Source: Sediminibacterium sp. (lineage in GTDB: Bacteria; Bacteroidota; Bacteroidia; Chitinophagales; Chitinophagaceae). From it: a stretch of 64,000 bases of DNA. Under the pieces are notes generated by a model. The model did no database searches and was not told the DNA's origin. It was given only the letters and a program-made list of their open reading frames with translations. Location: NCBI GenBank assembly GCA_044352855.1, contig JBILDC010000012.1:4892-68891 (forward strand). The letters are read 5' to 3'. A program made the position numbers and the translations under genes. Each line of letters starts with the position of its first letter. The stretch's first letter is position 1. Positions 1,044-36,238 of the stretch are shown here, piece after piece.

Positions 1044-1574
1044 ATGAAAAGAATTATTAAATATATCATACTACCTCTGAGTATTTTATTATTTGTGGTA
1101 GCCTTCCCCCAAAGCTTAAAAGCGCAGCAAATTACTGGGACTTTTATTATGAGCAGTGTAGGTGGTATACAAAATGCTTCCAACAACAGCATGGCAATTG
1201 CTTTTAATAGTAGCGCCACTTGTTTGAATGTACAAAACGGAACAGCTGTTTTAACTGGCGACAGAGGAACGGGCAACTTTGCTATTAACTGCGAGGTGAA
1301 TGCTGTTTTTAATAGTTTAGGTATTAAGCTTTATCCTAATCCAGTGGGAGTCAATACCAAGGTTAAGTTTATGAATGCACCTCCTTTAAACGATCAATTT
1401 TCAATCACAATTTGGAACGCTGAAGGCATTCAAGTGGGAACTATAAAAGCTACAGGATTTGAAATATTTCAAGGCAAACAGCTTGATTTTGCTTCATTGT
1501 CTGTAGGTAGTTATGTGATTCAAATAGAATCAGAAAAATATATAGATGCTATAAAATTTATCAAGGCTAATTAA
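1044..1574 (+). CDS. Small T9SS type A sorting-domain (CTD) protein
   Basis: Sec signal, ~65-aa N-domain with 2 Cys, then KLYPNP...LSVGSYVIQI...IKFIKAN, typical of a T9SS CTD. Confidence 0.8.
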   Translation: MKRIIKYIILPLSILLFVVAFPQSLKAQQITGTFIMSSVGGIQNASNNSMAIAFNSSATCLNVQNGTAVLTGDRGTGNFAINCEVNAVFNSLGIKLYPNPVGVNTKVKFMNAPPLNDQFSITIWNAEGIQVGTIKATGFEIFQGKQLDFASLSVGSYVIQIESEKYIDAIKFIKAN

Positions 1575-1605
1575 TAATTAAAATTTACAATTCATCCATT
1601 TCAAT

Positions 1606-4600
1606 ATGAAGACTCAAAAGATTACTATTATAAAAAAAATTCTAATTGTAGCTCTGCTAAGTATATGTACTAGTCAGTCCTTTGCCCAAAGCAGTAATGG
1701 AATATTTTTCCAAGCCGTGGCTAGAGATAATTTTTCTAATCCAGCCAAGGATAGAAATATCTACGTTCAGTCAACCATTATACAAAACACCACAACGGGT
1801 ACTAAAGTATTAATAGAGATACATAAGTCTAGTACCGACGCCATGGGCGTTTTTAATATTACTATTGGTAATGGACAAAGAACCGGCGGTGCTGCTACCA
1901 GTATTGCTGCCATTGATTGGTCTAAGGGCCCTTTTTATTTAAATTTAAAAATTGCCATTACGCCATTTAGTGCTAGTGATAGTTGGGACTACTCTAAAGA
2001 ATTAGTAGACATGGGTACTACAAGTTTTGGTGCTGTGCCATTTGCATTTTATTCAGCAAGTTCTGCTAAAATAGATGATAAGTTAAATGCTAACGATACT
2101 ACTAAGATGTTGGCAGTATACGCCAAGGCCATGTCGGTAAAAACATTAGAAACATCTTTAGCCACTAAGTTAACTGCAGCCGATACACTTACAATGTTAG
2201 CGCCCTATGCAAAGGCTGCTTACACCATTGATTCAAATTTCTTTAGAACACAACTAGCTACCAAATTATCTATAGCAGATAGTGCTAAGTACGTAACTAC
2301 AACACAGTTAGCGAGCTATAATTTTTCAAGTGGAGGAGGCGGAGTCACTGTGGATACCTCAAATTTGTCAAATAGAATTAATCTAAAAGCGAATGCTACT
2401 GAATTAACTAGTTTGACTTCATCTTTAGGGAATAAAATAAACATTGCTGACAGTACCACAAAATATGTTACTCCTACACAGCTTTCAAGATATAACTTTT
2501 CAAGTGGAGGAACTACTATTACTATTGATACCACAAGTTTGTCTAATAGAATTAACCTAAAGGCAAATGTTTTAGATATGAATTCGGCAATAGCTTCCGA
2601 AGCTGCCGTTGCAAGAACTGCTGAATTAGCACTTTCAAATAATATTGCTTCTAATACAACCAACATAGCAACTAACACAACAGCTATTGGCAGTTTGAAT
2701 ACATCTGTAGCTTCTAATACTTCTAATATAGCTACAAATAATTCTGCTATAGCTGCAGAAGCGACAACAGCTAGAGCTGCTGAATTAACGCTTACAAATA
2801 ATCTAGCTTCAAGCACAGCTAGTATAACTGCAAACACTTCTAGCATAAATAGTTTAAATACCAATATTGCTTCAAATACTATAAGTATCACTTCATTAAG
2901 CTCCTTCGTTTTAGGACAAGTTGCAACTTCTAGTTCTTCAGAATTAACAATTACTAATAATTTAAGTGCTAATACTGCTGCGATTAATTCTTTAAATACC
3001 AATGTTGAAAGTAATACTAAAAGTATAACTGCAAATACAAATGCAATCGCATCTGAAGCAACAACTGCAAGAGCTGCTGAATTAACGCTTACAAACAATG
3101 TAGCATCAAATACCTCAAGTATTACATCTAATACAACTTCTATTAATAATCTAAATACGAATGTAGTATCAAATATTTCAAGTATTAACTCATTAAATAC
3201 AACAATTGCTGCTGCTACAAATAGCAATACTGCAAACACTATTGTAAAAAGAGATGCTAGTGGTAATTTCTCAGCTGGAACAATAAATGCAAGTACTATT
3301 AATACACCTATCTATGCATCTACACCACAAGCATTAACAGATGGTGCAATCATTAGTTGGAATCCAGCAAATGGATTAAATGCAAGTGTAACCTTAGCTG
3401 GAAATAGAACTTTAAGTTTTACTTCTACTCCTGTAGCAGGTTCTTATGGTACCTTAGTAGTAACGCAAGATGCTACAGGTGGTAGAACAATTACATTACC
3501 ATCAACTACCAATAAAGTATTGGGTTCTACATCAGGCACAACCATTGCATTATCTACAACAGCAAATGCTAATGACATTTTAAATTTTTATTACGACGGA
3601 ACAAACTGTTATTGGAATATAGGACAAGGATATGGTAGTGCAGCAACAGCGCCATTAACTTTAACTACAACAGGTACGGGTGCTGCTACTTTATCAGGCA
3701 CTACTTTAAATATTCCATCTGTTTCATCTACTGTAAATGCAGGAAGTATATCTGGAACAATTGCTGTGGCTAATGGAGGAACAGGTGCAAGTACGCAACA
3801 AGCATCTATTAATGCTTTGACGGGAACACAATCTTCAGGTAAATACTTAAGAAGTGATGGAACCAATGCAACATTAACTTCTATTCAAGCTGCAGACATT
3901 CCAACATTAAATCAAAATACAACTGGTAATGCTGCAACAGCTACGCTTGCTACTAATGCTACAACAGCCGGAAATATAACAGCAACTAGTAATGGAACAT
4001 TAATTTCTTTATCAAGTTTAAATACGGTTGGAACTATCACAAGTGGAACAATAAGTGTTACAACTGATATTAAAACAAGTGGCATATTAACGGCAGGAAC
4101 AGTTACCTATCCAAAAATACATGGAACAAGTGGTCAAGTATTAAGTACAACGGGCAGTGGAACTTTAACCTGGACAACTACAGCTGCGCAAGGTGTACCT
4201 TATTCAGGTGCAACAGGAGCAGTGAATTTAGGAGGCTATGATTTAACTGTGAATGGGGTAACGGTGGGTCGAGGTAACTTGAAAATGACCAATAACTATG
4301 CATTTGGGTACGCAGTTCTTTCTGCGAATACAACTGGTAATTATAACAATGCATTTGGTCATCAAGCACTTACCGCGAATACTACTGGTACAGAAAATAA
4401 TGCATTTGGTGAATATGTATTGCCCAAAAATATAGGAGGAAGTCAAAATACTGCTGTGGGATCAAATGCTTTAAAAGAAAATACTACAGGAAACGGTAAT
4501 ACAGGATATGGCCGTCAGGCTTTAATTGCTAATACGACTGGTTCATATAACACGGCTATTGGTCATCAGGCTGATGTTGCTTCCAATAACTTAACGAATG

Positions 4601-5220
4601 CGACAGCTATCGGAAATGGTGCAAGTGTGAGTACAAGTAACACTATACAATTAGGTAATACAAGTGTAACCAATGTAAAAACAAGTGGAACAATAACTGC
4701 CAAAGATGTAACCTATCCAAATGCTCATAATGCAACTGCTGGACAGGTGCTTACAATTAATGCTACTGGAACAGCAAGCTGGGCAACGCCTTCGAGCGGC
4801 GGGACAGGTTCTGGACATTATGTTGGGGAAGTATATGGGGGTGGAATAGTTTTTTATGTAACCACTGGGGGTTATCATGGGTTGATTGCATCTTCAACTG
4901 ATATCATGACAAGTCCTATTACAGCTATTGATAGGGCGACTAGCCCTGATTATCATGGATATACCACCAATGGTGAGAATTTGTATATAGATTGGGAAGC
5001 ACCAACATTTAGTCAATTAAAACTTCTCCGTGCTGCTAGAAATACACCTGGATTAAATTTGAATTTAAGTAGTAATGTATCTTATATAAGTACAACAACC
5101 GATTCTGGGGATACATTTAAATTTACGTGTTTAAGGTTTGTAGATAACGTTATTGAGTATCCTAATGGAAACTGGACTAATGATGGAAGGCTTGTTTTAC
5201 GATCAATTCGTACTTTCTAA
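1606..5220 (+). CDS. 1204-aa exported tail-fibre-like adhesin (FQAVARD N-domain, coiled-coil stalk, NTTG beta-repeats, divergent DUF1566-like C-terminus)
   Basis: Sec signal; GIFFQAVARD domain; IxxN heptads; ALTDGAIISW...YYDGT domain; NTTGxxNTAxGxxAL repeats; C-terminal HYVGEVYGGGIVFYV...DWEAPT...LRSIRTF. Confidence 0.75.
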   Translation: MKTQKITIIKKILIVALLSICTSQSFAQSSNGIFFQAVARDNFSNPAKDRNIYVQSTIIQNTTTGTKVLIEIHKSSTDAMGVFNITIGNGQRTGGAATSIAAIDWSKGPFYLNLKIAITPFSASDSWDYSKELVDMGTTSFGAVPFAFYSASSAKIDDKLNANDTTKMLAVYAKAMSVKTLETSLATKLTAADTLTMLAPYAKAAYTIDSNFFRTQLATKLSIADSAKYVTTTQLASYNFSSGGGGVTVDTSNLSNRINLKANATELTSLTSSLGNKINIADSTTKYVTPTQLSRYNFSSGGTTITIDTTSLSNRINLKANVLDMNSAIASEAAVARTAELALSNNIASNTTNIATNTTAIGSLNTSVASNTSNIATNNSAIAAEATTARAAELTLTNNLASSTASITANTSSINSLNTNIASNTISITSLSSFVLGQVATSSSSELTITNNLSANTAAINSLNTNVESNTKSITANTNAIASEATTARAAELTLTNNVASNTSSITSNTTSINNLNTNVVSNISSINSLNTTIAAATNSNTANTIVKRDASGNFSAGTINASTINTPIYASTPQALTDGAIISWNPANGLNASVTLAGNRTLSFTSTPVAGSYGTLVVTQDATGGRTITLPSTTNKVLGSTSGTTIALSTTANANDILNFYYDGTNCYWNIGQGYGSAATAPLTLTTTGTGAATLSGTTLNIPSVSSTVNAGSISGTIAVANGGTGASTQQASINALTGTQSSGKYLRSDGTNATLTSIQAADIPTLNQNTTGNAATATLATNATTAGNITATSNGTLISLSSLNTVGTITSGTISVTTDIKTSGILTAGTVTYPKIHGTSGQVLSTTGSGTLTWTTTAAQGVPYSGATGAVNLGGYDLTVNGVTVGRGNLKMTNNYAFGYAVLSANTTGNYNNAFGHQALTANTTGTENNAFGEYVLPKNIGGSQNTAVGSNALKENTTGNGNTGYGRQALIANTTGSYNTAIGHQADVASNNLTNATAIGNGASVSTSNTIQLGNTSVTNVKTSGTITAKDVTYPNAHNATAGQVLTINATGTASWATPSSGGTGSGHYVGEVYGGGIVFYVTTGGYHGLIASSTDIMTSPITAIDRATSPDYHGYTTNGENLYIDWEAPTFSQLKLLRAARNTPGLNLNLSSNVSYISTTTDSGDTFKFTCLRFVDNVIEYPNGNWTNDGRLVLRSIRTF

Positions 5221-5228
5221 AAATAAGT

Positions 5229-6017
5229 ATGAAAAACCTGCTCACAATATTATTTCTTCTAGTAACATTTATTTCTAATGCGCAACGCACTATGTTTGGT
5301 GGGCAGAATAATTACGTGGCGCTGGTGGATCCTACTGTAGTAACTACCGGATCTAACCCTGTTACAAATGGGTTGATTTTATATTTAAATGCAAGCTCAT
5401 ATAGTGGTTCTGGAAATACTTGGTCGGATTTAAGTACACAAAATAACAATGCATCGCTGACGGGTAACCCAACATTTTCTTCTAGCCCAAAAAGCTTTAC
5501 ACTTTCCAGTAATAAATATGCCTTAACCTCAAATTTAATTAGTTCATTTTCGTCAGCAACATTTATTGCTTGGGTGAATCCATCTCAGACACAGGTAAAC
5601 TATACTGGCGTAATATTTAGTAGGGGTCCAAATGCTGGGGCAACAGCGCCAGCAACAGGTATGAACTTTTTTAGCAATAATTCAGTTGGTTATTCCTGGA
5701 ATGATAATGGAAATACATGGAGCTGGGATTCAAGACTTCAAGTACCCTTAAATGCTTGGTCTATGATTGTTGTTAGCATTAATTCATCAAGCGCAACTGC
5801 CTATCTATTGAATGCTAGTGGAATCGTATCGTCAATTAATTCAGTTTCCCATCCCACTGTATCTGGATTAAAATTTTATGTAGGTACTGATCCTTTAGAT
5901 TTTAACACAAGGGCCATGGTTGGTAAAATAGCAACAGCGATGGTATATAGTACTGCATTGTCGCTGGAAGATATTACTTCAATATATAACGCACAAAAAG
6001 CTTCATTTGGTTTATAA
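5229..6017 (+). CDS. Exported LamG/ConA-like lectin domain protein
   Basis: Signal peptide, QRTMFGGQNNY, LILYLNASSYSGSGNTWSDLS...AWSMIVV...ALSLEDITSIYNAQKASFGL. Confidence 0.75.
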   Translation: MKNLLTILFLLVTFISNAQRTMFGGQNNYVALVDPTVVTTGSNPVTNGLILYLNASSYSGSGNTWSDLSTQNNNASLTGNPTFSSSPKSFTLSSNKYALTSNLISSFSSATFIAWVNPSQTQVNYTGVIFSRGPNAGATAPATGMNFFSNNSVGYSWNDNGNTWSWDSRLQVPLNAWSMIVVSINSSSATAYLLNASGIVSSINSVSHPTVSGLKFYVGTDPLDFNTRAMVGKIATAMVYSTALSLEDITSIYNAQKASFGL

Positions 6018-6026
6018 AATATATAA

Positions 6027-6836
6027 ATGAAAAAACTCTTTACCATACTATTTCTTCTTTCTGCATTTATTTCAAATGCGCAGCGTACTATGTTTGGTGG
6101 GCAGAATAATTATGTTGCACCGGTGGTTGTTGCTCCACCCGCTTTAGTAACGGCTGGCCTAGTCTTGAATTTAGATGCAGGCAATGCTTCAAGTTATAAT
6201 GGCACTGGAACTACTTGGTTGGATTTATCTGACAAACGAAACAATGGTACTCTAGTAAATACAATTACACATAATACTGCTAATCCTGGTTATTTGATAT
6301 TTAATGCGAATGGGAATGGTATTGCACAAGGAGGAATGAATCCCTATGTGAGTTTGCCTCAATCAACTGATTTTGATTTTGGAACGGGAGATTTTACTTT
6401 AGAAATGTGGGCCTACACAACAACTGCAAATGCTCATCCCGATTTTATTACTATTAATGCAAATGCATCCACGTACGCAGCAATACGAATAGAATATTGG
6501 AATAACAACTTAATTGTTTTCCATTCCTATGATGGCAATAGTCATGTAACTGGAGCTAGTGTTCCATTTACTTTGAATTCATGGCAGCAAATTGTGGTAT
6601 CCAGAATATCTGGGTCAGTTAAACTATATCTAAATAGCGATATAAAATCGACTTATTCATTACCGGGTTCTTTATTAGCGCAACAAGAAACACGTATAGG
6701 TGATTTAAGAGGTTCACTAGGCTATTATAGCTTTTCAGGAAATATCTCTATTGTTAAGATGTTTAAAAATAAGGGGTTGACTGATACGGAGGTGACAAAT
6801 CATTTTAATCTTACCAAATCACGTTTCGGTTTATAA
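6027..6836 (+). CDS. Exported LamG/ConA-like lectin domain protein (paralog of 5229-6017)
   Basis: Same N-terminus QRTMFGGQNNY; LVLNLDAGNASSYNGTGTTWLDLS, DFTLEMW, WQQIVVSR, LTDTEVTNHFNLTKSRFGL. Confidence 0.8.
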   Translation: MKKLFTILFLLSAFISNAQRTMFGGQNNYVAPVVVAPPALVTAGLVLNLDAGNASSYNGTGTTWLDLSDKRNNGTLVNTITHNTANPGYLIFNANGNGIAQGGMNPYVSLPQSTDFDFGTGDFTLEMWAYTTTANAHPDFITINANASTYAAIRIEYWNNNLIVFHSYDGNSHVTGASVPFTLNSWQQIVVSRISGSVKLYLNSDIKSTYSLPGSLLAQQETRIGDLRGSLGYYSFSGNISIVKMFKNKGLTDTEVTNHFNLTKSRFGL

Positions 6837-6853
6837 ACTGTAAAAATATTTTT

Positions 6854-7669
6854 ATGAAAAAATACATCACACCTATTATTATAATATTCTCTCTTGCTGC
6901 CTGCATTCCTCCGGGAAAGCTTAATGAGTCATTAGATGCTAATACTTTACTTACTAAAAAGTACGATACATTAAATAATAAATTAAATGATACTGTGGCT
7001 AGTTTTAGTGCAAGCCTAAGTAATTTAAAAAGCAGTATTAATAATTTAAAAGATAGTGTAAGCTATTACCGTGGTTTAGTATCAACCACTCCTGCACAAA
7101 CGCAGGGAGATATTTTTTTAAATCAAATGCTTGGCTATTCTTTATTAAGTAAGTCGGAATTGGCTAACATTAAAGCCGCTAATACATCAAATAATGCAAA
7201 CAATGCTTGGCTAGAAAGCTTCAAAGCCGACGTAAAGAAATATGCAGTAGCTGATGTCGATATTAAATTAAATAAAGGTTTTGTATTTGTAGATATTCCA
7301 TCTAATATCATGTTTGCTAGTGGAAGTGCTTCACTCAATAAAAAATCAATTCAAATGTTAGGCGAAATTGCAAAATTATTAAATACACAACCTTCAATGA
7401 ATTTTTTAATTGAAGGCCATACCGATAATAAAACCTTTAAAGCTAATAAGACGAATGATAACTGGACGCTTAGTGTAAACCGAGCAGCAGCAGTAGCAAA
7501 AGTTTTACAAACTAAATACAAGATTGATCCAAAAAGAATGATTGCTGCAGGAAGAAGTGAGTATTTGCCTATGGGTGACAATAATACAAAAGCGGGTCGT
7601 TCAAACAACCGTCGTATACGTATTGTGTTAATGCCTTCGATGAAACAAATAATGAATTTGAATAATTAA
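6854..7669 (+). CDS. OmpA/MotB-family lipoprotein with peptidoglycan-binding domain
   Basis: Lipobox LAAC; coiled-coil N-part; MFASGSA, IEGHTDN, NWTLSVNRA, GRSEYLP, NRRIRIV motifs. Confidence 0.9.
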   Translation: MKKYITPIIIIFSLAACIPPGKLNESLDANTLLTKKYDTLNNKLNDTVASFSASLSNLKSSINNLKDSVSYYRGLVSTTPAQTQGDIFLNQMLGYSLLSKSELANIKAANTSNNANNAWLESFKADVKKYAVADVDIKLNKGFVFVDIPSNIMFASGSASLNKKSIQMLGEIAKLLNTQPSMNFLIEGHTDNKTFKANKTNDNWTLSVNRAAAVAKVLQTKYKIDPKRMIAAGRSEYLPMGDNNTKAGRSNNRRIRIVLMPSMKQIMNLNN

Positions 7670-7681
7670 TAAATTATAAAA

Positions 7682-7891
7682 ATGGAAATTACAATGAGTA
7701 TTGATCCCATAAAATTATCTAGCAGAGAAACTGAAGTTTGTAATTTATTATTAACTGGTAGCAGTACAAATAAAATTGCAGAGTTATTAAATATAAAGTG
7801 CAATACTGTATCTACTATAAAGAAATCTATTTTTTATAAAACAAAGACTAATAACTTAATTGAATTGTATGAGGTGTATAAACAAGTTTAG
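7682..7891 (+). CDS. Stand-alone LuxR-type HTH protein (69 aa)
   Basis: LSSRETEVCNLLLTGSSTNKIAELLNIKCNTVSTIKKSIFYK matches the LuxR HTH pattern. Confidence 0.8.
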   Translation: MEITMSIDPIKLSSRETEVCNLLLTGSSTNKIAELLNIKCNTVSTIKKSIFYKTKTNNLIELYEVYKQV

Positions 7892-8387
7892 TATAATTAT
7901 ACTGGCTACATTTTTATTTCCCTCTACAACAAATGCTCAATCACTTAGCCCATTTACTTTTAATAATGGTGGGGGGTATAGTAATACTTTGGACTGGAGT
8001 GTAGGAGAATCTGTATCTATTGCTCATTTTACTAGTTTTGGATATTCTTTAAATACAGGTGTATTACAACCTAGCACCACTATTACAACATCAATTGAAG
8101 AATATGGCCCTGTGGTATTTGGCAATCAAATTATAATGGGCCCCAACCCCACTAGCAAACTACTTCATATTAAAGCAAGCTTTAATGAACTGGGAGAAAT
8201 TTCATTTCAAATGTTTAATAGTAAATCAAACAATGTTTTAAACTATAATGGCGGAACCATTTTTAGTAGATACGAAAAAGACCTTTACTTAGAAAATTTA
8301 CCCTCTGGAGCCTACTATATGAGAGTCAATTTCAAACCTAGTACTGGAAATACTAAAACGGGTATTTATAAAATTATTAAACTATAA
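7869..8387 (+). CDS. Small T9SS type A sorting-domain (CTD) protein
   Basis: ATG 7869 (track uses TTG 7860); Sec signal; GGG...LDWSVGE...GVLQP N-domain; GPNP...LPSGAYYMRV...YKIIKL CTD. Confidence 0.8.
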   Translation: MRCINKFSIIILATFLFPSTTNAQSLSPFTFNNGGGYSNTLDWSVGESVSIAHFTSFGYSLNTGVLQPSTTITTSIEEYGPVVFGNQIIMGPNPTSKLLHIKASFNELGEISFQMFNSKSNNVLNYNGGTIFSRYEKDLYLENLPSGAYYMRVNFKPSTGNTKTGIYKIIKL

Positions 8388-8429
8388 ATAATTCTTAAAT
8401 AATGTCAAATACATTATTATAAACATTTT

Positions 8430-10634: not shown

Positions 10635-10642
10635 AAAATTAC

Positions 10643-13165: not shown

Positions 13166-13173
13166 ATATTACA

Positions 13174-16100: not shown

Positions 16101-18618
16101 ATGGACAACACTTAATGATGCAACCACCACTATAAAAGGTATTATTCAATTAGCAGGAGATCTAGGAGGAACAGCAACATCACCCACAGTCAATACTGTA
16201 GGAGGAGTGAACTCATCTACCATATCAACTTTTGATACAAGAATAGCATCCAATACAAATAGTATTACTTCTTTAACTACAGCTTTAAGTTCAAATACAA
16301 ATAGCATTACTACATTAACTAGCACTGTAAATACAAATACGGCAAGTATAACTTCACTAAGTACAAATATTTTAGCTTCAACATTAACCGGCACAGTTGC
16401 AGTTGCCAATGGAGGAACAGGTCAAACAAGTATTGTAGGGTTACAAACTGCATTAGGATTATTAGGAACTCAAGTGGCTATAGGAGCAAATGCAGGCACG
16501 AGTACACAAAGTGCCTATTCAGTTGCAATAGGAAATGCTGCAGGACAAATAAGTCAAAACACGAATTCAGTTGCAATAGGCAATGGTGCTGGATACAATA
16601 CCCAAGGAAATGGTTCAACATCTTCTGGTGGAGCTGTTGCAATTGGTGCGAATGCAGGTAACAAATTACAAGCAGTTGGTGCAGTAGCCATTGGAGCCAG
16701 TGCTGGTCAAAATGATCAAAGTGCCTATGCAGTAGCAATAGGGTATGGTTCGGGTGTAACAAGTCAAGCAGGTTATACTGTAGCCATTGGACAAAACGCA
16801 GGAGCAACGAGTCAAGAAATAGGTGCGGTTTCTATGGGACCCAATGCTGGTTATAATGCACAAAAAAATCGTGCTGTTGCAATAGGTGATAATGCAGGAT
16901 ATGATTTGCAAGCACAAAGTGCAGTTGCAGTGGGTAATAAAGCAGGAAGAGAAAATCAACAGGAACTTGCAGTTGCGGTAGGATATGAATCTGGAAGAGT
17001 ATCCCAAGGACAAAATGCAGTTGCTGTGGGAAATCAAGCAGGAAAAACAAGTCAAGGAATTTATGCAGTTGCAGTTGGAGTGAATGCAGGAAACAATACA
17101 CAAGGCAATTATACAGTTGCAATAGGTAATAGTGCAGGTAATGACAGACAAAAAATTGGAGCTATTGCAATAGGTAATAGTGCAGGACAAATTACCCAAG
17201 ATGAAGATGCTATTGCGATTGGGAAAAGCGCAGGATATACTAGTCAAGGTACTTTTTCTGTTGCGATAGGAACTAATGCTGGAAATTCTGGTCAAGAGAG
17301 TCAGTCCATTGCCATTGGAAACAAAGCTGGAAACTCTAGTCAAAAATTTAACTCGGTTGCCATTGGAGCCATGGCAGCAGAAACTTCACAAGGAGATAAT
17401 GCTATTGCAGTTGGATACACTGCAGGAAACAATACACAAAGCAATCATACCGTTGCAATAGGCAATGGTGCGGGTAAAAATACTCAAAAAGAATTCGGCA
17501 TTGCAATAGGTTATGATGCTGGACAAAATACACAGAGTACTAAATCAATAGCTGTTGGAGCTAACGCTGGTCAAACAACGCAAGGGGAAAGTTCAGTTGC
17601 CATAGGAGATCAAGCAGGGAAAACTAGTCAAGGTAATTACACAGTTGCATTAGGAATTAATGCAGGAAATAATACGCAAGGCAATCATGCTGTTGCAATA
17701 GGCAATGGTGCGGGTAAAACTACTCAAAAAGAATTCGGAATTGCAATAGGATATGATGCTGGACAAAATACGCAGAGTACTAATGCGATAGCGATTGGAG
17801 CTAACGCAGGTTTGACAACTCAAGGAGAAAATTCAGTTTCTATTGGTTATGAATCTGGAAAATCAAGGCAAAAAGATTTTTCAGTTGCTATTGGACCCTA
17901 TGCTGGATATTTAGATCAAGCCCGCGCATCAGTTGCAGTAGGTCCAAATGCGGGTAAAGAAAATCAAGGTGTTAGTGCAGTGGCAGTTGGAGATCAAGCA
18001 GCTCAATTTACTCAAAGTAATTATGCTGTTGCAATAGGAGTTAACGCAGGTCAAAATAGTCAAGGTTTGAATGCGGTTGCCATTGGTAGCGGAGCAGGAC
18101 AAACCAATCAAGGTACTAATTCAGTAGCATTAGGTGTTGCTTCAAGTAGTACAGGTAGCACGGCAACTGCATTAGGCGCAATAGCTTCTGCAGCCCATTC
18201 GAATTCAACTGCCATTGGATATCAAGCAGCTACGACTGGAGATAATACTATTCAATTAGGAAATAGTAGTGTAACAAATGTTAACACAAGTGCTGCTATA
18301 AATGCAAAATCATTTTATTTAAATAGTTCAAATTCAATCACAGCAGGGAATACTACTACAATTGATTTATCTAACAATAATATTTTTAAAATAAGTCTAG
18401 GTACAGATATAGCTACACTTAGTTTAAATAATGCTAAACCAGGCACCTATATTATTGAAATTATTCAAGGGGGCACCTATAATGTATCTTTCCCAAGTGC
18501 CTGGAGATGGGCCTCTGGTTTAATTCCTATTATTACACCCACTGCAAATAAAATTGATATAGTCACGCTTGTATATGATGGATCAACCTATTTTGCATCT
18601 ACAGTTCAAAATTTTTAA
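13174..18618 (+). CDS. 1814-aa exported fibre/adhesin (N-domain Y, YadA-head-like 16-aa repeats, 17-aa NTTG repeats, C-terminal domain Z)
   Basis: N-terminus homologous to 10643-13165; QxxxAVAIGxxAGxxx repeats; ends TIDLSNNNIFKISL...IDIVTLVYDGSTYFASTVQNF. Confidence 0.8.
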   Translation: MKYKIFFFIIIAFFTTKLHAQIKLSSYATTQDAGSLYPTHLDSLGQGGFMSLSSIASRDAIITRRRKQGMLVYVQANDSLYKLTTANLSNTGWVAVGLLTSQQLRNFVNSSVNGLTNTNLSGTAGITDANLGTISTAGKVSNSATSATASNTSYTIVARDDIGNFSANTITANLNGTALIATNIEGGASGSMPYQSSNNTTGLLAAGTNGQYLQLANGLPSWQTLSTTVSASNITGTVALVNGGTGQTTIAGIQSALGLSGNKIALGSLSGTFSQSANAVAIGSNAGNTSQGAQSVAIGFLAGKENQGNYTIAIGSAAGVTRQFEGSVAIGYGSGNLNQGTNAVALGPGSGSSNQSDYALALGYNAGYSNQGANSVAIGSNAGKTTQSTNSVALGAYATSGYTNSTAIGYGAVTAAANTIQLGADGSNVDGVTTTAIANVKTSGTLTLGTVTYPRAHGTNGQLLTTSGSGTLTWTSNVVPYTGAIKSVNLGYYDLMVSGITVGRGPGTGNFGNTTFGDSALAYNNTGSRNNAFGNNALQNNTSGSDNIAMGTSALMQNTTASSNIAIGSQALGANSPGSYNVAIGSFALAKDSTGYNNTAIGYASLRANTTGFNNTATGMFSLISDTSGSYNTANGFQSLNYNTNGSHNTASGVQSLYFNSIGNYNSAFGNESQYFNKGSYNTSIGRKALLNNSTGNHNTAVGNKADVLSDNLENATAIGDSAIVTASNTIQLGNINVTNVKTSGTVTANAVTYPNSHGTSGQLLTTTGSGTLTWTTSTITLVPYTGAIKAVNLGAYDLTVNGLTVGKGVGAFASNTVIGNGLSNTNNTGTNNTAIGFNSLKSNTTGVSNTANGVSALFSNTTGNFNTAYGISALYLNESGYYNTAIGMTSLLTNTTGNHNTAIGYKANVGFGNLENATAIGDSAIVTASNTIQLGNINVINVKTSGTLTAGAITYPKTHGTNGQFLTTTGTGTLSWTTLNDATTTIKGIIQLAGDLGGTATSPTVNTVGGVNSSTISTFDTRIASNTNSITSLTTALSSNTNSITTLTSTVNTNTASITSLSTNILASTLTGTVAVANGGTGQTSIVGLQTALGLLGTQVAIGANAGTSTQSAYSVAIGNAAGQISQNTNSVAIGNGAGYNTQGNGSTSSGGAVAIGANAGNKLQAVGAVAIGASAGQNDQSAYAVAIGYGSGVTSQAGYTVAIGQNAGATSQEIGAVSMGPNAGYNAQKNRAVAIGDNAGYDLQAQSAVAVGNKAGRENQQELAVAVGYESGRVSQGQNAVAVGNQAGKTSQGIYAVAVGVNAGNNTQGNYTVAIGNSAGNDRQKIGAIAIGNSAGQITQDEDAIAIGKSAGYTSQGTFSVAIGTNAGNSGQESQSIAIGNKAGNSSQKFNSVAIGAMAAETSQGDNAIAVGYTAGNNTQSNHTVAIGNGAGKNTQKEFGIAIGYDAGQNTQSTKSIAVGANAGQTTQGESSVAIGDQAGKTSQGNYTVALGINAGNNTQGNHAVAIGNGAGKTTQKEFGIAIGYDAGQNTQSTNAIAIGANAGLTTQGENSVSIGYESGKSRQKDFSVAIGPYAGYLDQARASVAVGPNAGKENQGVSAVAVGDQAAQFTQSNYAVAIGVNAGQNSQGLNAVAIGSGAGQTNQGTNSVALGVASSSTGSTATALGAIASAAHSNSTAIGYQAATTGDNTIQLGNSSVTNVNTSAAINAKSFYLNSSNSITAGNTTTIDLSNNNIFKISLGTDIATLSLNNAKPGTYIIEIIQGGTYNVSFPSAWRWASGLIPIITPTANKIDIVTLVYDGSTYFASTVQNF
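13996..14380 (+). repeat. Block of 8 coding 16-aa (48-nt) QxxxAVAIGxxAGxxx repeats
   Basis: Counted by hand in the translation of 13174-18618. Confidence 0.8.
16507..18150 (+). repeat. Block of ~34 coding 16-aa (48-nt) repeats
   Basis: Hand count of QxxxxVAIGxxAGxxx units; near-identical DNA at 17461 and 17701 (240-nt offset = 5 units). Confidence 0.85.
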
Positions 18619-18619
18619 G

Positions 18620-20179
18620 ATGAAATTTTATTTAGTTACACTAAGTTTTTTTTTAATAGGCATAACACATGCGCAAGTAATGCCACAATCATTTATTACT
18701 AATAATAATGCGTATCCAATTAGTACAAGTGGCGCTAATGTAGCATTTAATTTTGAATCCGCTATTTCTACCGTGGTAGCAAATACTTATCCAGCAATAA
18801 AAAGTGATTTTTCATTCAATTTTAGTAACACAACACCATATACGATACAATTTTTTTTTAATAAAGTAGTTAGTAACAATACCAGATTTGGGTTTATTGG
18901 TTTCACAACTGCAACAAATGGATTTTCTTATGACCCTGCGTGCTTTTTATTTTATGAATTTCAGAATGGTGTCATGAGAAATTTTGTAAAAAATGAATAT
19001 TTAGGCGGAAATATTAATGTAAATAGTTTTGTTATTGGACAAACTTATCAAATTACTACAACTTATAATGGTAGTCAATGGAAACACTATGTGAATGGAG
19101 TTTTATTTTCTATAGTCAACAACAATAGTACATGGAGTGGTACTGGAAATTTAATGTTAGGCAATATTGGAGGCTATACCAATATAATTTTAGACGAAGT
19201 AAGATTTTGGGATAGAGCTTTAACGCAAGATGAAATTTCAAATAATTATAAAAAGCCTTTAATAGGAAATGAAAACGGATTAAAACTGTATTATAATTTT
19301 AATAATCAAGGTAATCCATCAGAAAACAATTCAAATATTCAATACCTAAAAGATCTAACATCCAATAATAATAAAGGGACATTTAATAATTTGTCTTTAT
19401 CAGGCACACAAAATAATTTTATACCTAGTATAGCATATTACGATAGTATCGCAATTTCTTTGGATGCAAATGATTTAGATAGTTATCCTGGCACTGGGAA
19501 TGCTTCCTCGCTCATTGCTGGAGGCAATGCTTGGCATGATTTAAGTACTAAGCAAAGTTTATTTTTTTCTAATAATTTGAACTATAATACAAATGCGGCT
19601 CCAATACTTAATGCAGATGGAGGGCGTTCTTTATATATAAAAAATATGTATGGGCGTTCAAATTTAAATACGGGCATTTCAGGTAGTTCTCCAAAATCAA
19701 TTGAAGCTTGGGTTAAATTTAATTCTTTAGACAATATTTCAGTTGCTTCAATTGGTAATTTGTCTGACTATAATCAATTTGAACTGGCAGCTAACAACAA
19801 TAAATTAATTCTAAATATTGGATCAAATTTTTCAAGTAATCTACTTATAAAAAGCACAAGTACATTGGTAATTAATAGATGGTACCATGTTGTAATTACT
19901 TGGTCTCGTAGTTTTGCAAAAACGGCAAATTATAAATACGGTGCTTTTACCATGTATATTAATGGCATAAAAGATAATGACTTCTTTAATAGAGACGGAG
20001 AATACAATCATAGTATTGATATAACATTAGTTAATTCCACAAGTACCCCAGTTTATATAGGAACAAGTCTAAGGCCTTTTAATGGTAAATTAGGAATATT
20101 AAAAGTGTACCGAAAAGAATTACTTGAAACAGAAGTTTTAAATAGGTTTAATGCCACAAAAAGCAGGTTTGGGTATTAA
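18620..20179 (+). CDS. Exported tandem LamG/ConA-like domain protein
   Basis: ATG 18620 just after the upstream stop (track start 18569 overlaps it); signal peptide; LDEVRFWDRALTQDEI; second domain ISLDANDLDSYPGTG...RWYHVVITW...EVLNRFNATKSRFGY. Confidence 0.8.
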   Translation: MKFYLVTLSFFLIGITHAQVMPQSFITNNNAYPISTSGANVAFNFESAISTVVANTYPAIKSDFSFNFSNTTPYTIQFFFNKVVSNNTRFGFIGFTTATNGFSYDPACFLFYEFQNGVMRNFVKNEYLGGNINVNSFVIGQTYQITTTYNGSQWKHYVNGVLFSIVNNNSTWSGTGNLMLGNIGGYTNIILDEVRFWDRALTQDEISNNYKKPLIGNENGLKLYYNFNNQGNPSENNSNIQYLKDLTSNNNKGTFNNLSLSGTQNNFIPSIAYYDSIAISLDANDLDSYPGTGNASSLIAGGNAWHDLSTKQSLFFSNNLNYNTNAAPILNADGGRSLYIKNMYGRSNLNTGISGSSPKSIEAWVKFNSLDNISVASIGNLSDYNQFELAANNNKLILNIGSNFSSNLLIKSTSTLVINRWYHVVITWSRSFAKTANYKYGAFTMYINGIKDNDFFNRDGEYNHSIDITLVNSTSTPVYIGTSLRPFNGKLGILKVYRKELLETEVLNRFNATKSRFGY

Positions 20180-20399
20180 TTTTTTTGAGGGTTAGCATAA
20201 TGTCGCAACTTAGAAAATTTTATAATTATATTTTAATAAAATAATATATTATTAAAATAGTTTAATATTTTTCATTTCGAAGAAAATATTAAAACAGTTT
20301 AACTACAAGCTATTTTTAATAATTGTATTTTTATTTTAATAATTTTAATCACAGGGAAGCCGAAAACTGTATTATAGAGTAGGCGCAAATTTTAATTAT

Positions 20400-20693
20400 A
20401 TGAAAAATAAGTTTGTAACATTCGCTTTATTGTCATTTTTATGTTTAAGTATGGCTTCTTGCTATACTGTATCCTATGCAGTCGGTACTGGTTCTCAGAC
20501 TGGTGAGACTATTATGGAAAAAAATCATTATTTGGTTGCTGGCTTAGCGCCTATTAAAACAGCCAATCCTACTCAAATGGCTGGAGATGCTAAAAACTAT
20601 CAAGTAACTATTTCACATACTGTAGTTGATGGCCTAATAAATATTTTAACAGGTGGGTTATATACGCCTACTACAACTATTGTTAAGAAGTAG
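20400..20693 (+). CDS. Bor/Iss-family small lipoprotein
   Basis: Lipobox MASC; HYLVAGL and HTVVDGLINILTGGLYTPTT resemble the Bor family. Confidence 0.65.
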   Translation: MKNKFVTFALLSFLCLSMASCYTVSYAVGTGSQTGETIMEKNHYLVAGLAPIKTANPTQMAGDAKNYQVTISHTVVDGLINILTGGLYTPTTTIVKK

Positions 20694-20720
20694 TTTTTTA
20701 ATTTATTTTAAATTTTATTC

Positions 20721-20759
20721 TAAGAAAAAGGAGCTTATAATTTAAGTTTCTTTTTCTTA
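20721..20759. terminator. Intrinsic terminator hairpin
   Basis: taagaaaaaggagctta-taatt-taagtttctttttctta: 17-bp stem with G-U pairs and A/T tracts on both sides. Confidence 0.75.
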
Positions 20760-20869
20760 TTTTATTTTACGGCATTCCACACTAGAAAAATTTATATGAA
20801 TGTATTCGATATAAAAAATATTAAATTAGTTTAAGAAGAAATTAATACAATCTGTTGTAAATTTATTTT

Positions 20870-22384
20870 ATGAAAAAAGTATTTCTTTTCTTTTTTATTT
20901 TTTTTTCATCACTACATGTATATGCACAAACTGGAATATTTTTCCAAGCAATTGCAAGAGATAATACTTCCAATCCTGCTAAAGACAGAAAATTATATGT
21001 ACAAACTAATATTATACAATCAACAACAACGGGCACTATAGTTTTAACAGAAGAGCATGAAACCTTTACCGATGCATTTGGCATATTTAGTATAATGGTA
21101 GGCAGCGGAAGAAGAGTAGGAGGTACCGTTACTAGTTTAAGTACTATTGATTGGGCTAAAGGCCCTTACTATTTAAATATTAAAATTGTTATTACACCAG
21201 TGGGAGTAGGTGCTGGCTGGGATTATACAAAAGAGTGGGTAGATATAGGAACCACTATTTTTGGAGCTGTACCATTTGCATTGTATTCAGCTAGTACAGC
21301 AAAAATTGATGAAAAATTAAATTCTTCAGATACAACTAAAATGTTAAACCCTTATGCCAAAGTGCAAGCGGTTCAAACATTATCAACTATCATTGATACA
21401 AAATTAGCGACCAGGGATACTTCAGCTATGTTAGCGCCTTATGCTAAATTGTCTTACAGCTTAGATAGTATTTATTTAAAAAAACAAATAGCTAGTTTAT
21501 TAGGCGCATTGGATACTATAAAATACACCAAACAAACTTATACCGATTCTGCATTACTTTCAAAAATGAACATTTTTGATAAAAGCATATATGCAAAACA
21601 AATTTATACTGATTCTGCTTTGCTTACAAAATTATCAACTACAGGAAGTGCAGCAAGTTTAACTAATTTTCCAATATTCAATCAAAATACAACAGGTAAT
21701 GCTGCTACTGCAGACAATATTACGGCAACTAATAATACAACCTTAACTAGTTTATCTAATTTAAATACAGTCGGGACTATTACAACTGGTGTATGGAGTG
21801 CTACTACTATAGATATAGCACATGGAGGAACTGGTTTAACTAAAGCTGGCTTAGATGGGCAGGTCTTGAGTACAGCATCTGATGGAAGTCTTCAATGGGT
21901 TAGCTTAACTTCATCGACTACTACACATAGAATTGGTGAGAGATTCGGAGGAGGCATTGTATTTTATGTATATGATAATGGTAAACATGGCTTAATAGCA
22001 GCAACTTCTGATCAAGCTTCTTTTGTTAGATGGGGAAATACTAATGCTGTTAATGCTGTAAGAGATGGAATTAATGCAGGTATGGCCAATACTGAAAGAA
22101 TTATTTTAGTACAAGGTTCCGCTGGAGATTATGCAGCACAGATTGCTGCAAATTACCAAGGTGGTGGATTTGGTGACTGGTATTTACCCTCTAAATATGA
22201 ACTAAATCTGCTTTTTCAAAAAAAAGCCTTTGTTGGATTGTTTCCAGGTTTCGGTTATTGGAGTTCTAATGAGTCTGGCAATAGTAATGCATGGGGGCAA
22301 GATTTCGCTGATATATGGGGGACTCAATTTTATACTAATAGAACTCAAAAACATAGTTCTGTCCGCGCTATTAGATCGTTTTAA
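20870..22384 (+). CDS. 504-aa exported FQAIARD-domain fibre protein with DUF1566 (Lcl-like) C-terminus
   Basis: N-domain closely homologous to 1606-5220; C-terminal HRIGERFGGGIVFYV...GDWYLPSKYEL...YWSS...VRAIRSF. Confidence 0.8.
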   Translation: MKKVFLFFFIFFSSLHVYAQTGIFFQAIARDNTSNPAKDRKLYVQTNIIQSTTTGTIVLTEEHETFTDAFGIFSIMVGSGRRVGGTVTSLSTIDWAKGPYYLNIKIVITPVGVGAGWDYTKEWVDIGTTIFGAVPFALYSASTAKIDEKLNSSDTTKMLNPYAKVQAVQTLSTIIDTKLATRDTSAMLAPYAKLSYSLDSIYLKKQIASLLGALDTIKYTKQTYTDSALLSKMNIFDKSIYAKQIYTDSALLTKLSTTGSAASLTNFPIFNQNTTGNAATADNITATNNTTLTSLSNLNTVGTITTGVWSATTIDIAHGGTGLTKAGLDGQVLSTASDGSLQWVSLTSSTTTHRIGERFGGGIVFYVYDNGKHGLIAATSDQASFVRWGNTNAVNAVRDGINAGMANTERIILVQGSAGDYAAQIAANYQGGGFGDWYLPSKYELNLLFQKKAFVGLFPGFGYWSSNESGNSNAWGQDFADIWGTQFYTNRTQKHSSVRAIRSF

Positions 22385-23834: not shown

Positions 23835-23845
23835 ATAAATACCCA

Positions 23846-24382: not shown

Positions 24383-24383
24383 T

Positions 24384-25277: not shown

Positions 25278-25280
25278 TAT

Positions 25281-31006: not shown

Positions 31007-31021
31007 TCTTCCAAAAAATAA
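30977..31021 (+). repeat. Three tandem 15-nt units (tcttccacaaaaaat, tcttccaaaaaataa x2)
   Basis: Read directly; spans the sulfatase stop codon. Confidence 0.8.
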
Positions 31022-31032
31022 TTTTATAAAAT

Positions 31033-32502: not shown

Positions 32503-32503
32503 G

Positions 32504-33649: not shown

Positions 33650-33673
33650 TTATTTATATTTTTACTTTTAAAT

Positions 33674-35245: not shown

Positions 35246-35249
35246 AAAG

Positions 35250-36206: not shown

Positions 36207-36238
36207 AATATATACCTTGAGAAAAATCAATTATACCT

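Follow-up and report, generated by a model that had tools for sequence, protein, structure and literature searches.

A chromosomal array of exported phage-module fibres, resembling the MAT adhesins of Bdellovibrio, in a Sediminibacterium-like bacterium

The window (the whole stretch of 64,000 nucleotides of Sediminibacterium sp. DNA that was analysed) carries a co-oriented array of ~22 kb on the + strand, which encodes five fibres with signal peptides (1204, 734, 840, 1814, and 504 aa), three LamG proteins, two small proteins with a T9SS CTD, and one OmpA lipoprotein. The genes and features, in order, are the following:

3..554, + strand: gene O, 3′ part of the gene for a 261-aa signal-peptide protein, outer-membrane beta-barrel-like, with a C-terminal Phe
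593..1021, + strand: gene A, 142-aa lipoprotein with lipobox LFSC, in the same tightly spaced array as O
1044..1574, + strand: gene B, small T9SS type-A CTD protein
1606..5220, + strand: gene C, 1204-aa fibre
5229..6017, + strand: gene D, secreted LamG (Laminin_G_3) protein
6027..6836, + strand: gene E, secreted LamG (Laminin_G_3) protein
6854..7669, + strand: gene F, OmpA/MotB-like peptidoglycan-binding lipoprotein with a coiled N-part
7682..7891, + strand: GerE/LuxR gene, 69-aa helix-turn-helix protein (PF00196, E 1.6e-11)
7869..8387, + strand: gene G, 172-aa signal-peptide protein with a T9SS CTD
8430..10634, + strand: gene H, 734-aa proximal fibre
10643..13165, + strand: gene I, 840-aa middle fibre
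13174..18618, + strand: gene J, 1814-aa distal fibre
18620..20179, + strand: gene K, secreted protein with two LamG domains
20400..20693, + strand: Bor-family outer-membrane lipoprotein gene, 97 aa (PF06291, E 6e-22)
20721-20759: terminator-like hairpin, 3′ of the Bor-family gene
20870..22384, + strand: gene L, 504-aa short fibre

Every gene listed in the initial annotation was found in its place on the + strand, but that list was incomplete, as the 69-aa GerE/LuxR gene (7682-7891) and the Bor lipoprotein gene (20400-20693) had been overlooked. O is the first gene of the tightly spaced array and is complete in loci L063 and L001; a Pfam search returned no match for O or A. The two genes adjoin each other ahead of the GerE gene and G in L005 and L127, and A is conserved together with O. 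Start and stop codons of neighbouring genes often overlap, which suggests coupled translation, while L probably forms its own transcription unit. Long antisense ORFs within the fibre genes fall in repeat DNA, and we take them to be spurious. The host is a freshwater, Sediminibacterium-like member of the Chitinophagaceae that does not look predatory, and a MAG contig of 1.5 Mb and numerous lake metagenomes contain the same operon. Genomes carry many fibre paralogues, and the length of C differs between near-identical strains (1204, 1217, or 2073 aa).

Signal peptides were judged from the n-region, the Kyte-Doolittle h-region, and the cleavage site, all read off the sequence. Every listed product has a K/R-rich n-region, a hydrophobic h-region (best 10-residue mean of 2.4-3.4), and an ‘AQ’-type cleavage site, except A, F, and the small Bor gene, which have lipoboxes instead; the signal peptides proposed earlier are thus borne out, as are the LamG domains of D, E, and K (two LamG_3 copies in K) and the OmpA domain of F. 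D and E are 32% identical and vary between related loci. K starts 1 nt past the stop codon of J and is kept after it in orthologous loci, and F is missing from most related loci, whereas G is always there. The GerE/LuxR gene overlaps the start of G and precedes it in 14/14 loci, and its product is a candidate regulator; the Bor-family gene lies ahead of L-type fibres in 4/4 loci. A domain search of the large fibres found no T9SS CTD, autotransporter barrel, or other Pfam domain, in agreement with the initial annotation, and no recognisable outer-membrane export signal in the fibres. No PorP/SprF-like gene was found at the locus.

Each fibre is a mosaic of phage tail-fibre modules. C comprises a MAT-like N-domain (1699-2061), a repetitive stalk with units of 14 aa, a beta-sandwich module that resembles the tip of J, a beta-roll/tail-spike module, and, from about 4768, a Lcl-CTD-like (DUF1566) tip, whose C-terminus matches the solved Lcl-CTD structure 8Q4E (E 1.4e-6). 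L is built more simply, with an N-domain of the same type (nC-type, 20933-21295), a short stalk, and a Lcl_C/DUF1566-like tip from about 22007. H begins with the MAT-like N-domain nH (8511-8843); its stalk consists of 16-aa and 9-aa repeats and leads to a phage ‘minor tail protein’ module and then to a C-terminal domain that we call cHI (about 9837-10631). This last domain also ends I (about 12359-13162), which starts with a different N-terminal domain, nIJ (about 10700-10957). J shares nIJ (about 13231-13488), continues with tail-spike-like modules and a beta-roll of >27 units of 16 aa (13962-14357, 16473-18134), and ends in a beta-sandwich tip (about 18244-18615). The likeness to phage tail fibres noticed at first is real: J matches PHROG 4636 ‘tail spike’ with E 3e-55, H and I match ‘minor tail protein’ PHROGs with E 1e-16 to 1e-20, and BFVD fold matches include phage tail fibre proteins. 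The structure model of H was poor (mean pLDDT 49) and gave no significant PDB fold match.

The best-conserved part of C, H, and L is the beta-rich N-domain of ~111-121 aa with which they start; among H orthologues it is 83-95% identical, vs. 57-60% for the C-terminal domain. All 17 signal-peptide-free N-domains analysed matched the NCBIfam model NF053851 Bdello_MAT_N (best E 1.2e-6), while other families were each matched by at most one of them. The window's fibres all score below the curated cut-off of this model, and the match spans only about its first half; we consider the N-domain of C, H, and L to be distantly related, as judged by sequence, to that of the Bdellovibrio MAT fibres. A profile search with the N-domain recovered 23,368 cluster representatives; among the best 150, nearly all have it directly after the signal peptide, and the proteins are 159 to 2290 aa long. 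NF053851 was matched by 20 of 50 representatives, only one of which exceeded the cut-off (65.7 vs. 60 bits), with part of its score coming from its signal peptide. Tips among these 50 included Lcl_C (14), Fib_succ_major (6), and Peptidase_S74 (5), and the family, by its sequences, has the MAT architecture of a conserved N-domain with variable tips. The N-domain is also found repeated in tandem and within a protein of the BlaR1 type, which shows that it need not be a terminal anchor. A MAT-type N-domain is missing from I and J, and nH found no match in 50,697 phage records.

The two small T9SS proteins, which had been described as CTD-only, do carry CTDs, but each also has a conserved N-part of ~45-65 aa. 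The CTD of B lies above both curated cut-offs (TIGR04183, 31.7 vs. 23 bits; PF18962, 31.8 vs. 27 bits), and that of G falls slightly short (26.4 vs. 27 bits), although many G homologues carry PF18962. In G, the N-part of ~45 aa reads NNGGG..(D/E)WS(V/I)GESVSIA.F..LNTGVLQP, with 16 invariant residues between positions 32 and 68, and is followed by a linker and the CTD; in the structure model the CTD reaches a pLDDT of about 80-89 and the N-part 28-46, so the latter is not predicted to fold alone. B belongs to the G family as a divergent member; in L001, L007, and L129-L143, nC/nL-type fibres are preceded by B-like genes. In 54 pairs from fibre-selected loci, -1 to 61 nt separate a G gene from the nH-type fibre gene downstream of it, and in loci selected by G the G gene is directly upstream of such a fibre in 40/40 testable cases, down to 25% identity. 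On this genomic evidence G appears to be an obligate upstream partner of nH-type fibres and B the partner of C, that is, specific partners rather than bystanders. The divergence of G correlates with that of the N-domain (r = 0.83), but not above the correlation between the two halves of G itself, so this shows co-inheritance and not contact. No G-family gene adjoins L, and in some loci a single G accompanies several fibres. A limited literature search found no CTD-bearing adaptor for a CTD-less cargo, and the rule of a small T9SS-CTD protein ahead of each fibre set seems to be new.

A further regularity concerns the order of the fibre genes. In loci that include an independent nIJ-selected set, all 37 unique nIJ genes are preceded by an ORF ending in cHI, and an nIJ ORF comes after each of the 36 cHI domains. 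The gene order thus follows a strict rule: G or B comes before an N-domain fibre and, if this fibre ends in cHI, at least one nIJ-starting fibre comes next. Chains consist of 2-5 fibres, duplicated middle fibres always retain both nIJ and cHI, and a tip of another kind closes the last fibre. Two isolated phages likewise have a cHI gene followed by an nIJ gene among their tail-fibre genes, in both cases lacking signal peptides: gp28 and gp29 of Tunturiibacter phage Tunturi_5, and genes 87 and 88 of Bacteroides phage DAC19. The cHI/nIJ matches score 36-56 bits (with Z set to 1e6, E 3e-7 to 2e-13). Phages are known to build fibres from several genes: in the long tail fibre of T4 (gp34-gp37) the segments come from consecutive genes and each C-terminal domain joins the next N-terminal domain, and in G7C and CBA120 multi-gene tail fibres form branched receptor-binding complexes. 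The array has no sequence similarity to gp34-37 and its joint is inferred; in addition, no virion is involved, each segment carries a signal peptide of its own, and at the head of the chain stands a cell-specific N-domain absent from phages. A phage-type joint that seems, from these gene orders, to link successive fibres is apparently an undescribed rule. The multi-subunit assembly suggested in the initial annotation is therefore supported by the succession of cHI and nIJ, but the locus is not a single filament: it consists of at least three fibre units (B and C; G with H-I-J; and L).

The B. bacteriovorus fibres known as MATs start with a signal peptide and a conserved N-domain, continue as a trimeric stalk of phage-like character, and end in a tip that can be exchanged (Caulton et al. 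2024, PMC10769870), and Supplementary Table S3 of the same paper already includes members of the Bacteroidota (FCB group). Calling the present system undescribed was thus too strong: MAT fibres are of the same kind, with a beta-rich N-domain right after a Sec signal peptide, a long phage-like stalk, swappable tips that include Peptidase_S74, many paralogues per genome, and no known outer-membrane export signal. The array differs in its weak N-domain likeness, in the obligate T9SS-CTD partner gene of each fibre set, in its non-predatory-looking freshwater host, and in I and J, which lack a MAT-type N-domain and come after a cHI-ending fibre, an order that would imply hetero-assembly. The tips of C and L match that of Legionella Lcl, a trimeric ‘lollipop’ adhesin whose DUF1566-containing tip binds sulfated glycans (glycosaminoglycans) (Rehman et al. 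2024, PMC11162425; PDB 8Q4E), but Lcl leaves the cell by type II secretion and is anchored N-terminally by an amphipathic helix, and the stalks described here have no collagen repeats. Among T9SS-dependent surface proteins of Bacteroidota, type A CTD cargo is linked to anionic LPS, while SprB-type adhesins, very long filaments exported by the T9SS, combine type B CTDs with PorP/SprF partners (PMC9143113); B and G are typical of the small proteins with a type A CTD, but the fibres carry neither type. With the trimeric autotransporters of the YadA family the fibres share repetitive beta-roll ‘head’ units and coiled stalk segments, and J weakly matches YadA and C a fragment of SadA; however, there is no C-terminal membrane-anchor barrel and the polarity is reversed, the conserved end being N-terminal.

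Could the array instead belong to a prophage remnant, a tailocin, or another phage-like particle, with the fibres as receptor-binding proteins? The PHROG and BFVD matches would fit, but we find this hardly credible: no capsid, terminase, portal, sheath, tube, baseplate, integrase, or lysis gene was found in 10 kb upstream and 40 kb downstream, there is no GC island, the sole tRNA genes are >20 kb away, signal peptides are present in every subunit and in none of the phage homologues, and nH is unmatched among phages. Prophage identity is contradicted by the metabolic and regulatory genes on both flanks, and the locus is chromosomal, as originally proposed. It is also highly improbable that the fibres form an envelope scaffold that lies in the periplasm or lines the outer membrane from within, with F as its link to peptidoglycan. 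Such a role would agree with their lack of an export signal and with the OmpA-like lipoprotein in the array, but F, unlike G, is missing from most related loci, the adhesin domains of the tips are familiar from surface proteins, and Bdellovibrio MATs are surface-exposed although equally devoid of a signal.

Two other readings accept exported fibres. According to one, which we consider unlikely, these are independent MAT-like adhesins: separate homotrimers in which cHI is merely a tip, the gene order is synteny from a phage ancestor, and G and B are unrelated co-transcribed surface proteins. MATs have indeed been described as independent homotrimers, co-inheritance accounts for the co-divergence of G and the N-domain, and L stands without G while one G can precede several fibres. 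Against this, the rules hold without exception across wide divergence (40/40, 37/37, and 36/36), middle fibres of the 2-5-fibre chains always keep both domains when duplicated, the cHI-nIJ pair persists in two unrelated phages, and the codon overlaps suggest coupled translation. The other assigns the fibres to a protective coat or decoy (blocking phage adsorption or deterring grazers) or to prey capture rather than to general glycan adhesion; their great length, repetitiveness, and length polymorphism are in line with it, as are the many paralogues and the discovery of MATs in predators, with Table S3 tying FCB-group members to predatory lifestyles (PMC10769870). We think it quite unlikely, as the sequence holds no coat feature such as a lattice-forming domain, the tips have lectin-like or Lcl-like adhesin folds, and the window contains no predation machinery.

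The reading that we favour, and hold to be rather probable, is that the products of the locus are adhesin fibres on the cell surface, of the same kind as MATs (mosaic adhesive trimers), the surface exposure being inferred from sequence. Gene order and homology suggest that the fibres would be homotrimers, that the ~65-aa mature part of G (or B) would act as a surface peg binding the fibre N-domain, and that cHI would be a docking platform for nIJ. G (or B) would be exported by the T9SS, lose its CTD, and be linked to anionic LPS, and it may also ferry the fibre, which has no CTD, across the T9SS translocon. H, I, and J would connect serially or by branching to give a single long fibre of several segments, much as the T4 long tail fibre is built from consecutive genes, and the small GerE/LuxR protein may regulate the G-H-I-J-K unit. 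Glycans on particles, algae, or other cells would be the targets of the secreted LamG proteins and of the fibre tips, which are Lcl-CTD-like in C and L and a beta-sandwich in J. What stands of the first interpretation is a chromosomal set of exported phage-module fibres that lack a CTD or autotransporter barrel of their own, together with the idea of a multi-subunit assembly, but not its full novelty or its single filament. As far as the sequence tells, the locus resembles the MAT adhesins of Bdellovibrio, with two features that are apparently new: the T9SS partner and the putative fibre joint.

The first 22,400 nt of the window hold a densely packed array in which every gene lies on the plus strand; its members are named here by letter or by protein family:

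ends at 554, + strand: O, partial gene, product outer-membrane-protein-like
593-1021, + strand: A, lipoprotein
1044-1574, + strand: B, small T9SS-CTD protein
1606-5220, + strand: C, fibre of 1204 aa
5229-6017, + strand: D, LamG protein
6027-6836, + strand: E, LamG protein
6854-7669, + strand: F, OmpA lipoprotein
7682-7891, + strand: GerE/LuxR protein of 69 aa
7869-8387, + strand: G, small T9SS-CTD protein
8430-10634, + strand: H, fibre of 734 aa
10643-13165, + strand: I, fibre of 840 aa
13174-18618, + strand: J, fibre of 1814 aa
18620-20179, + strand: K, protein with two LamG domains
20400-20693, + strand: Bor-family lipoprotein
20870-22384, + strand: L, fibre of 504 aa

From O to K the intergenic gaps are each 42 nt or less, and the Bor gene and L are set apart from the array by wider gaps and by a terminator-like hairpin at 20721-20759. 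Every product of the array has a signal peptide or a lipobox, as called with a hydrophobicity script and inspection by eye, and each of the five fibres shows a Sec n-region and h-region followed by an AQ-type cleavage site. Domain scans with Pfam and NCBIfam recovered LamG_3, OmpA, Por_Secre_tail, Bor and GerE in the array and returned almost no matches for the whole fibres; no Pfam domain was found in C, H, I, J or L, the match of L to PF07603 being a near miss. PHROG profiles matched J to a tail-spike family (E 3e-55), H and I to minor-tail-protein families (E 1e-16 to 1e-20), and the LamG proteins to baseplate or virion proteins of phages. In-frame repeats with unit lengths of 27, 42 and 48 nt build up the stalks; among them are the beta-roll units of J, each 16 aa long and over 27 in number. 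The initial annotation had described a ~21-kb array of fibre, LamG, T9SS and OmpA genes, and both the gene set and its domains were recovered by gene calls, Pfam, NCBIfam and PHROG. Its inventory holds overall, with two small genes overlooked (those of the 69-aa GerE/LuxR protein and the Bor lipoprotein), and it had wrongly taken B and G for "CTD-only" proteins. The array is real, and chance falls far short of explaining it.

The GerE gene (7682-7891) overlaps the start of G by 23 nt and precedes G in 14 of 14 related loci; its product is a candidate regulator. Two genes for cNMP-binding (Crp-like) regulators lie just 5′ of it in contigs with the same operon (7587-8942 in the related locus L063). 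A scan for sigma-70 promoters gave no signal above background, and a search for RNA-seq runs or protein data gave none. The Bor-family gene between K and L (PF06291, E 6e-22), a family best known from phage lambda, is followed by the hairpin ending at 20759, which has 17 pairs, and the gene is kept upstream of L-type fibres in 4/4 loci. Antisense ORFs of up to 307 aa run on the minus strand within the fibre genes (2316-3239, 10720-11217 and 16666-17343); they are probably not genes, since they lie in repeat DNA and their translations are of low complexity. Fibre C differs in length among near-identical or related strains, with 1204 aa in the window (1606-5220), 1217 aa in L063 (11014-14667) and 2073 aa in locus L001 (2197-8418), and orthologues range from 727 to 851 aa for H and from 1547 to 2328 aa for J. 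This variation probably comes from the gain and loss of in-frame stalk repeats.

A prophage or tailocin was also considered. The scanned flanks hold no capsid, terminase, tail tube or sheath, baseplate, integrase or lysis genes, and we rejected this reading on the absence of phage morphogenesis, integrase and lysis functions. Upstream, as seen in contigs with an identical protein A, are a racemase, a permease, hydrolases, an HxlR protein and the two cNMP-binding (Crp-type) regulators; downstream are cytochrome c, YceI, DUF5777 and PepSY proteins, sulfatases, FGE, a symporter, a BNR sialidase-like protein and glycosidases of families GH20 and GH18. These are ordinary chromosomal genes, no GC island was seen, and the nearest tRNA genes, with no others found, are more than 20 kb from the array, so that the view of the initial annotation that this is not part of a prophage withstood the check. 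Near relatives of the entire operon occur in freshwater Chitinophagales and Sediminibacterium MAGs, in one case on a contig of 1.5 Mb, and in many lake metagenomes.

The surrounding genes merit a brief description of their own. Directly 3′ of the fibre locus, at 22884-26311, are genes for a multi-haem-like cytochrome c, YceI, a DUF5777 membrane beta-barrel and PepSY-TM. The cluster at 29438-37252 seems to serve the use of sulfated or sialylated glycans: its products are a formylglycine-generating enzyme, two sulfatases, a DHDPS-family lyase, a sodium:solute symporter and a BNR sialidase-like protein. Another sulfatase gene is found together with GH20 and GH18 genes at 51.7-60.8 kb. On the minus strand, at 37285-40435, four consecutive genes encode products of ~253-267 aa, the first a BD-FAE/esterase and the last a DUF6090 protein; the middle two may be tandem paralogues.

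Pairwise comparison of the fibres revealed a mosaic. C and L have in common their N-terminal 225 aa and a tip resembling that of the collagen-like adhesin Lcl (56% identity), and the N-domain of C recurs in H (35% identity). H and I have the stalk, the phage module and the C-terminal domain in common (42% over about 600 aa), I and J a separate type of N-domain (60% over 117 aa), and C and J their beta-roll modules (55% identity). The initial annotation had found neither a T9SS CTD of their own nor an autotransporter barrel on the large fibres, and the model searches agree: in C, H, I, J and L no Pfam or NCBIfam model of a type A or type B CTD matched at E <= 0.01, and we rejected an SprB-like reading because neither type of CTD is present. 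No Pfam match to a YadA-type C-terminal anchor barrel was obtained, only a weak head-repeat match (17 bits against a cut-off of 750), and the trimeric autotransporter reading was rejected for want of such a membrane anchor. A type V pilus was considered and rejected as well. The likeness to Lcl-family adhesins is confined to the DUF1566-type tip, which scores 32.5 against 34.9 bits for PF07603 and E 8.5e-19 for NF046116 in L, and matches 8Q4E at E 1.4e-6 in C; the Lcl stalk is built of collagen GXY repeats, of which the sequences here contain none. Nor do the fibres appear to be targets of a diversity-generating retroelement, a candidate rejected because the array shows no pair of template and variable repeats and the scanned flank genes include no reverse transcriptase; the direct repeats in the array are in-frame stalk and beta-roll units only.

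A sequence search of the PDB gave only the Lcl-CTD for C, a weak TAA fragment, an insignificant match for J and nothing for I, and a search with the N-domain profile gave no match there. The AlphaFold2 monomer of H has a mean pLDDT of 49 and is confident only at residues 630-734; Foldseek found no match to it in the PDB at E <= 0.001, and its 14 BFVD matches to phage fibre-like proteins are taken as support only, owing to the low quality of the model.

The N-domain of C, H and L provides a link to a known kind of fibre. Mosaic adhesive trimers (MATs) are surface fibres of Bdellovibrio with a signal peptide, a conserved, beta-rich N-domain of ~130 aa and a phage-like stalk that is trimeric; their tips vary, some being S74 and others different adhesin folds (PMC10769870). 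Homologues in the FCB group are given in Supplementary Table S3 of Caulton et al. 2024 (PMC10769870). In the NCBIfam scan, H and L matched weakly to NF053851 (Bdello_MAT_N, mosaic adhesive trimer family chimeric fiber protein). When 17 diverse N-domains of the C/H/L type were freed of their signal peptides, all 17 matched this model, with a best E of 1.2e-6, scores of at most ~22 bits against a cut-off of 60 and coverage of model positions ~16-80 only; no other family recurred. The domain is predicted to form seven beta-strands (pLDDT 56-71). It is absent from I and J, which have a different N-domain, and in orthologues of H it is by far the best-conserved part.

A profile built from the window sequences and their search matches retrieved 23,368 cluster representatives at 50% identity, 17,646 of them at E <= 1e-10. 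Among the best 150 matches, which are 159-2290 aa long, the domain begins at residues 9-46 in nearly all. Of 50 family representatives, 20 match NF053851 at E <= 1e-3; one scores above the curated cut-off, to which its signal peptide contributes. Among the tips of the 50 are Lcl_C (14), Fib_succ_major (6) and Peptidase_S74 (5), as well as Big_1, fn3 and YadA_head, so the family shows the variable tip on a conserved base, including S74-ended members, that characterizes MATs. The H-type domain (nH) matched none of 50,697 phage records. C, H and L would work like MATs and, judging from their sequences, are probably distant members of that group; for strict membership they are candidates only, because their scores do not reach the cut-off, the match covers no more than half of the model and the domain also occurs in tandem or internally. 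Thus, P0241 carries six tandem copies followed by a FlgD_ig-like C-terminus, P0315 two copies behind a BlaR1 M56 peptidase sensor, and P0326 two copies ahead of a Fib_succ_major tip, architectures that mark the N-domain as a reusable module and not only a terminal anchor. Modules of known trimeric kind (the Lcl-CTD, S74 in relatives and the phage fibre modules) lend indirect support to a MAT-type homotrimer.

If the large fibres have no CTD, the small proteins encoded before them do. B has T9SS type A features (31.7 against 23 bits for TIGR04183, 31.8 against 27 bits for PF18962); G is borderline at 26.4 against 27 bits for the CTD, and many of its homologues carry PF18962. CTD-typical motifs, PNP and a terminal KIIKL, are present. 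G consists of a signal peptide, a strongly conserved segment of ~45 aa, a linker and the type A CTD. Its family comprises at least 1,240 proteins, from Chitinophagaceae, Cytophagales (Aquirufa) and one Flavobacterium MAG, and the 120 matches listed are named "hypothetical protein" or not at all; likewise, the source names seen for the N-domain family are all "hypothetical" or "uncharacterized", and cluster look-ups brought no informative name. Aquirufa antheringensis 30S-ANTBAC, which can be cultured, carries a G-fibre pair (locus L055). In loci selected for their fibres, a G-like gene of ~168-176 aa lies directly 5′ of the fibre gene in 54 pairs, with a gap of -1 to 61 nt and, in some, overlapping stop and start codons. 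Conversely, in loci selected for G, an nH-type domain follows in 40/40 cases with downstream sequence, and this order is kept in G relatives at 25-39% identity and in paralogous pairs of one genome. B, a divergent G, pairs with the nC-type fibre C (nC and nL being the N-domains of C and L), and B-like genes head nC/nL-type fibres at other loci. We found no description of this pairing in the literature searched. Divergence of G and of the N-domain is correlated (r = 0.83), a value equal to that between the two halves of G and one that indicates co-inheritance only, as a mirror-tree cannot separate contact from co-inheritance. The AlphaFold model of G, whose fold matches are generic Ig-like sandwiches only, has a CTD that forms a confident beta-sandwich, with pLDDT of about 80-89, and a conserved segment at 28-46, a pattern that would fit a segment folding on a partner.

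Type A CTD cargo of the T9SS leaves the cell, loses its CTD by cleavage and becomes attached to anionic LPS. From this fate, mature G or B would be a surface peg for the fibre N-domain, and might also carry the fibre through the T9SS translocon.

How the other fibres would be joined is suggested by the order of their domains. H and I share a C-terminal domain, cHI; I and J share an N-terminal one, nIJ; and J has a tip of another kind. A separate collection of loci was gathered with nIJ as the sole query, and iterated HMMs served to annotate this and the other loci. Of the unique nIJ genes with 1 kb or more of sequence before them, 37 of 37 directly follow an ORF ending in cHI, and an nIJ ORF comes after all 36 unique cHI domains with downstream sequence. 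Of the cHI-bearing ORFs, 22 begin with nH or nC and 14 with nIJ, and chains reach four to five fibres. The same order is found in two isolated phages, in both cases in proteins without signal peptides: in Tunturiibacter phage Tunturi_5, the "tail fiber protein" gp28 (cHI-like C-terminus, 41 bits) is followed by the "tail fiber protein" gp29 (nIJ, 42 bits), and in Bacteroides phage DAC19 gene 87 (36 bits) is followed by gene 88 (56 bits). For a notional database of a million sequences, such scores equal E values from 3e-7 to 2e-13, and conservation of the motifs is visible; the phage homologues were seen only by iterated HMM, a tblastn search of the H C-terminal domain against phages having given no match. 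Three IMG/VR contigs catalogued as viral (L149-L151) also encode cHI-nIJ fibre pairs, with signal peptides and with neighbours that have no PHROG matches. Such loci were not counted as phage evidence for these two reasons, and the contigs may be bacterial or may belong to phages encoding exported fibres.

We propose that cHI and nIJ form a phage-derived joint, through which H, I and J would assemble in series or as a branch, much as in the T4 long tail fibre; every assembly step is read from gene order and homology. Joining both halves, a possible but still tentative model for Bacteroidota is that a small LPS-linked T9SS cargo anchors a CTD-less MAT-type fibre, perhaps also as its piggyback carrier, and that further fibres are added end to end through the cHI-nIJ joint. 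If true, the G family would supply the MAT N-domain with its missing surface partner, and adaptor-mediated ("hitch-hiker") secretion via T9SS would be revealed.

As to function, Legionella Lcl ends in a trimeric DUF1566-containing domain of solved structure that binds sulfated glycosaminoglycans, and the tips of C and L are similar to it. Moreover, D, E and K are secreted lectin-fold proteins, K always following J in orthologous operons, and many sulfatases and glycosidases are encoded elsewhere in the window. The fibres most likely serve as adhesins for glycans, borne by particles, algae or other cells; alternatively, they may serve predation or protection.

Finally, the initial annotation had put the fibre system forward as a candidate for an undescribed one, an interpretation that is right in part. 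The system is not categorically new, as in function, and probably by descent, it is of the MAT kind, first published in 2024. What does seem new are the cHI-nIJ chain grammar and the obligate T9SS-CTD partner, neither of which was found in the literature searched; they give testable hypotheses on MAT-type anchoring and export and on heteromeric fibres made from phage connectors. MAT fibres were described only in 2024, and their export route and the way in which the N-domain is held at the surface were posed as questions (PMC10769870); the gene order in Bacteroidota, with a tiny T9SS substrate always before the fibre gene, may give the answer. To judge from the chain grammar, bacteria may, like phages, assemble long heteromeric fibres out of exchangeable segments; this would be a principle new to bacterial adhesins and would offer protein engineering a set of connectors. 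The N-domain family is very large, with about 23,000 clusters at 50% identity, and, being common in freshwater Chitinophagaceae that are themselves abundant, it probably influences how lake bacteria attach to particles, algae or other cells.
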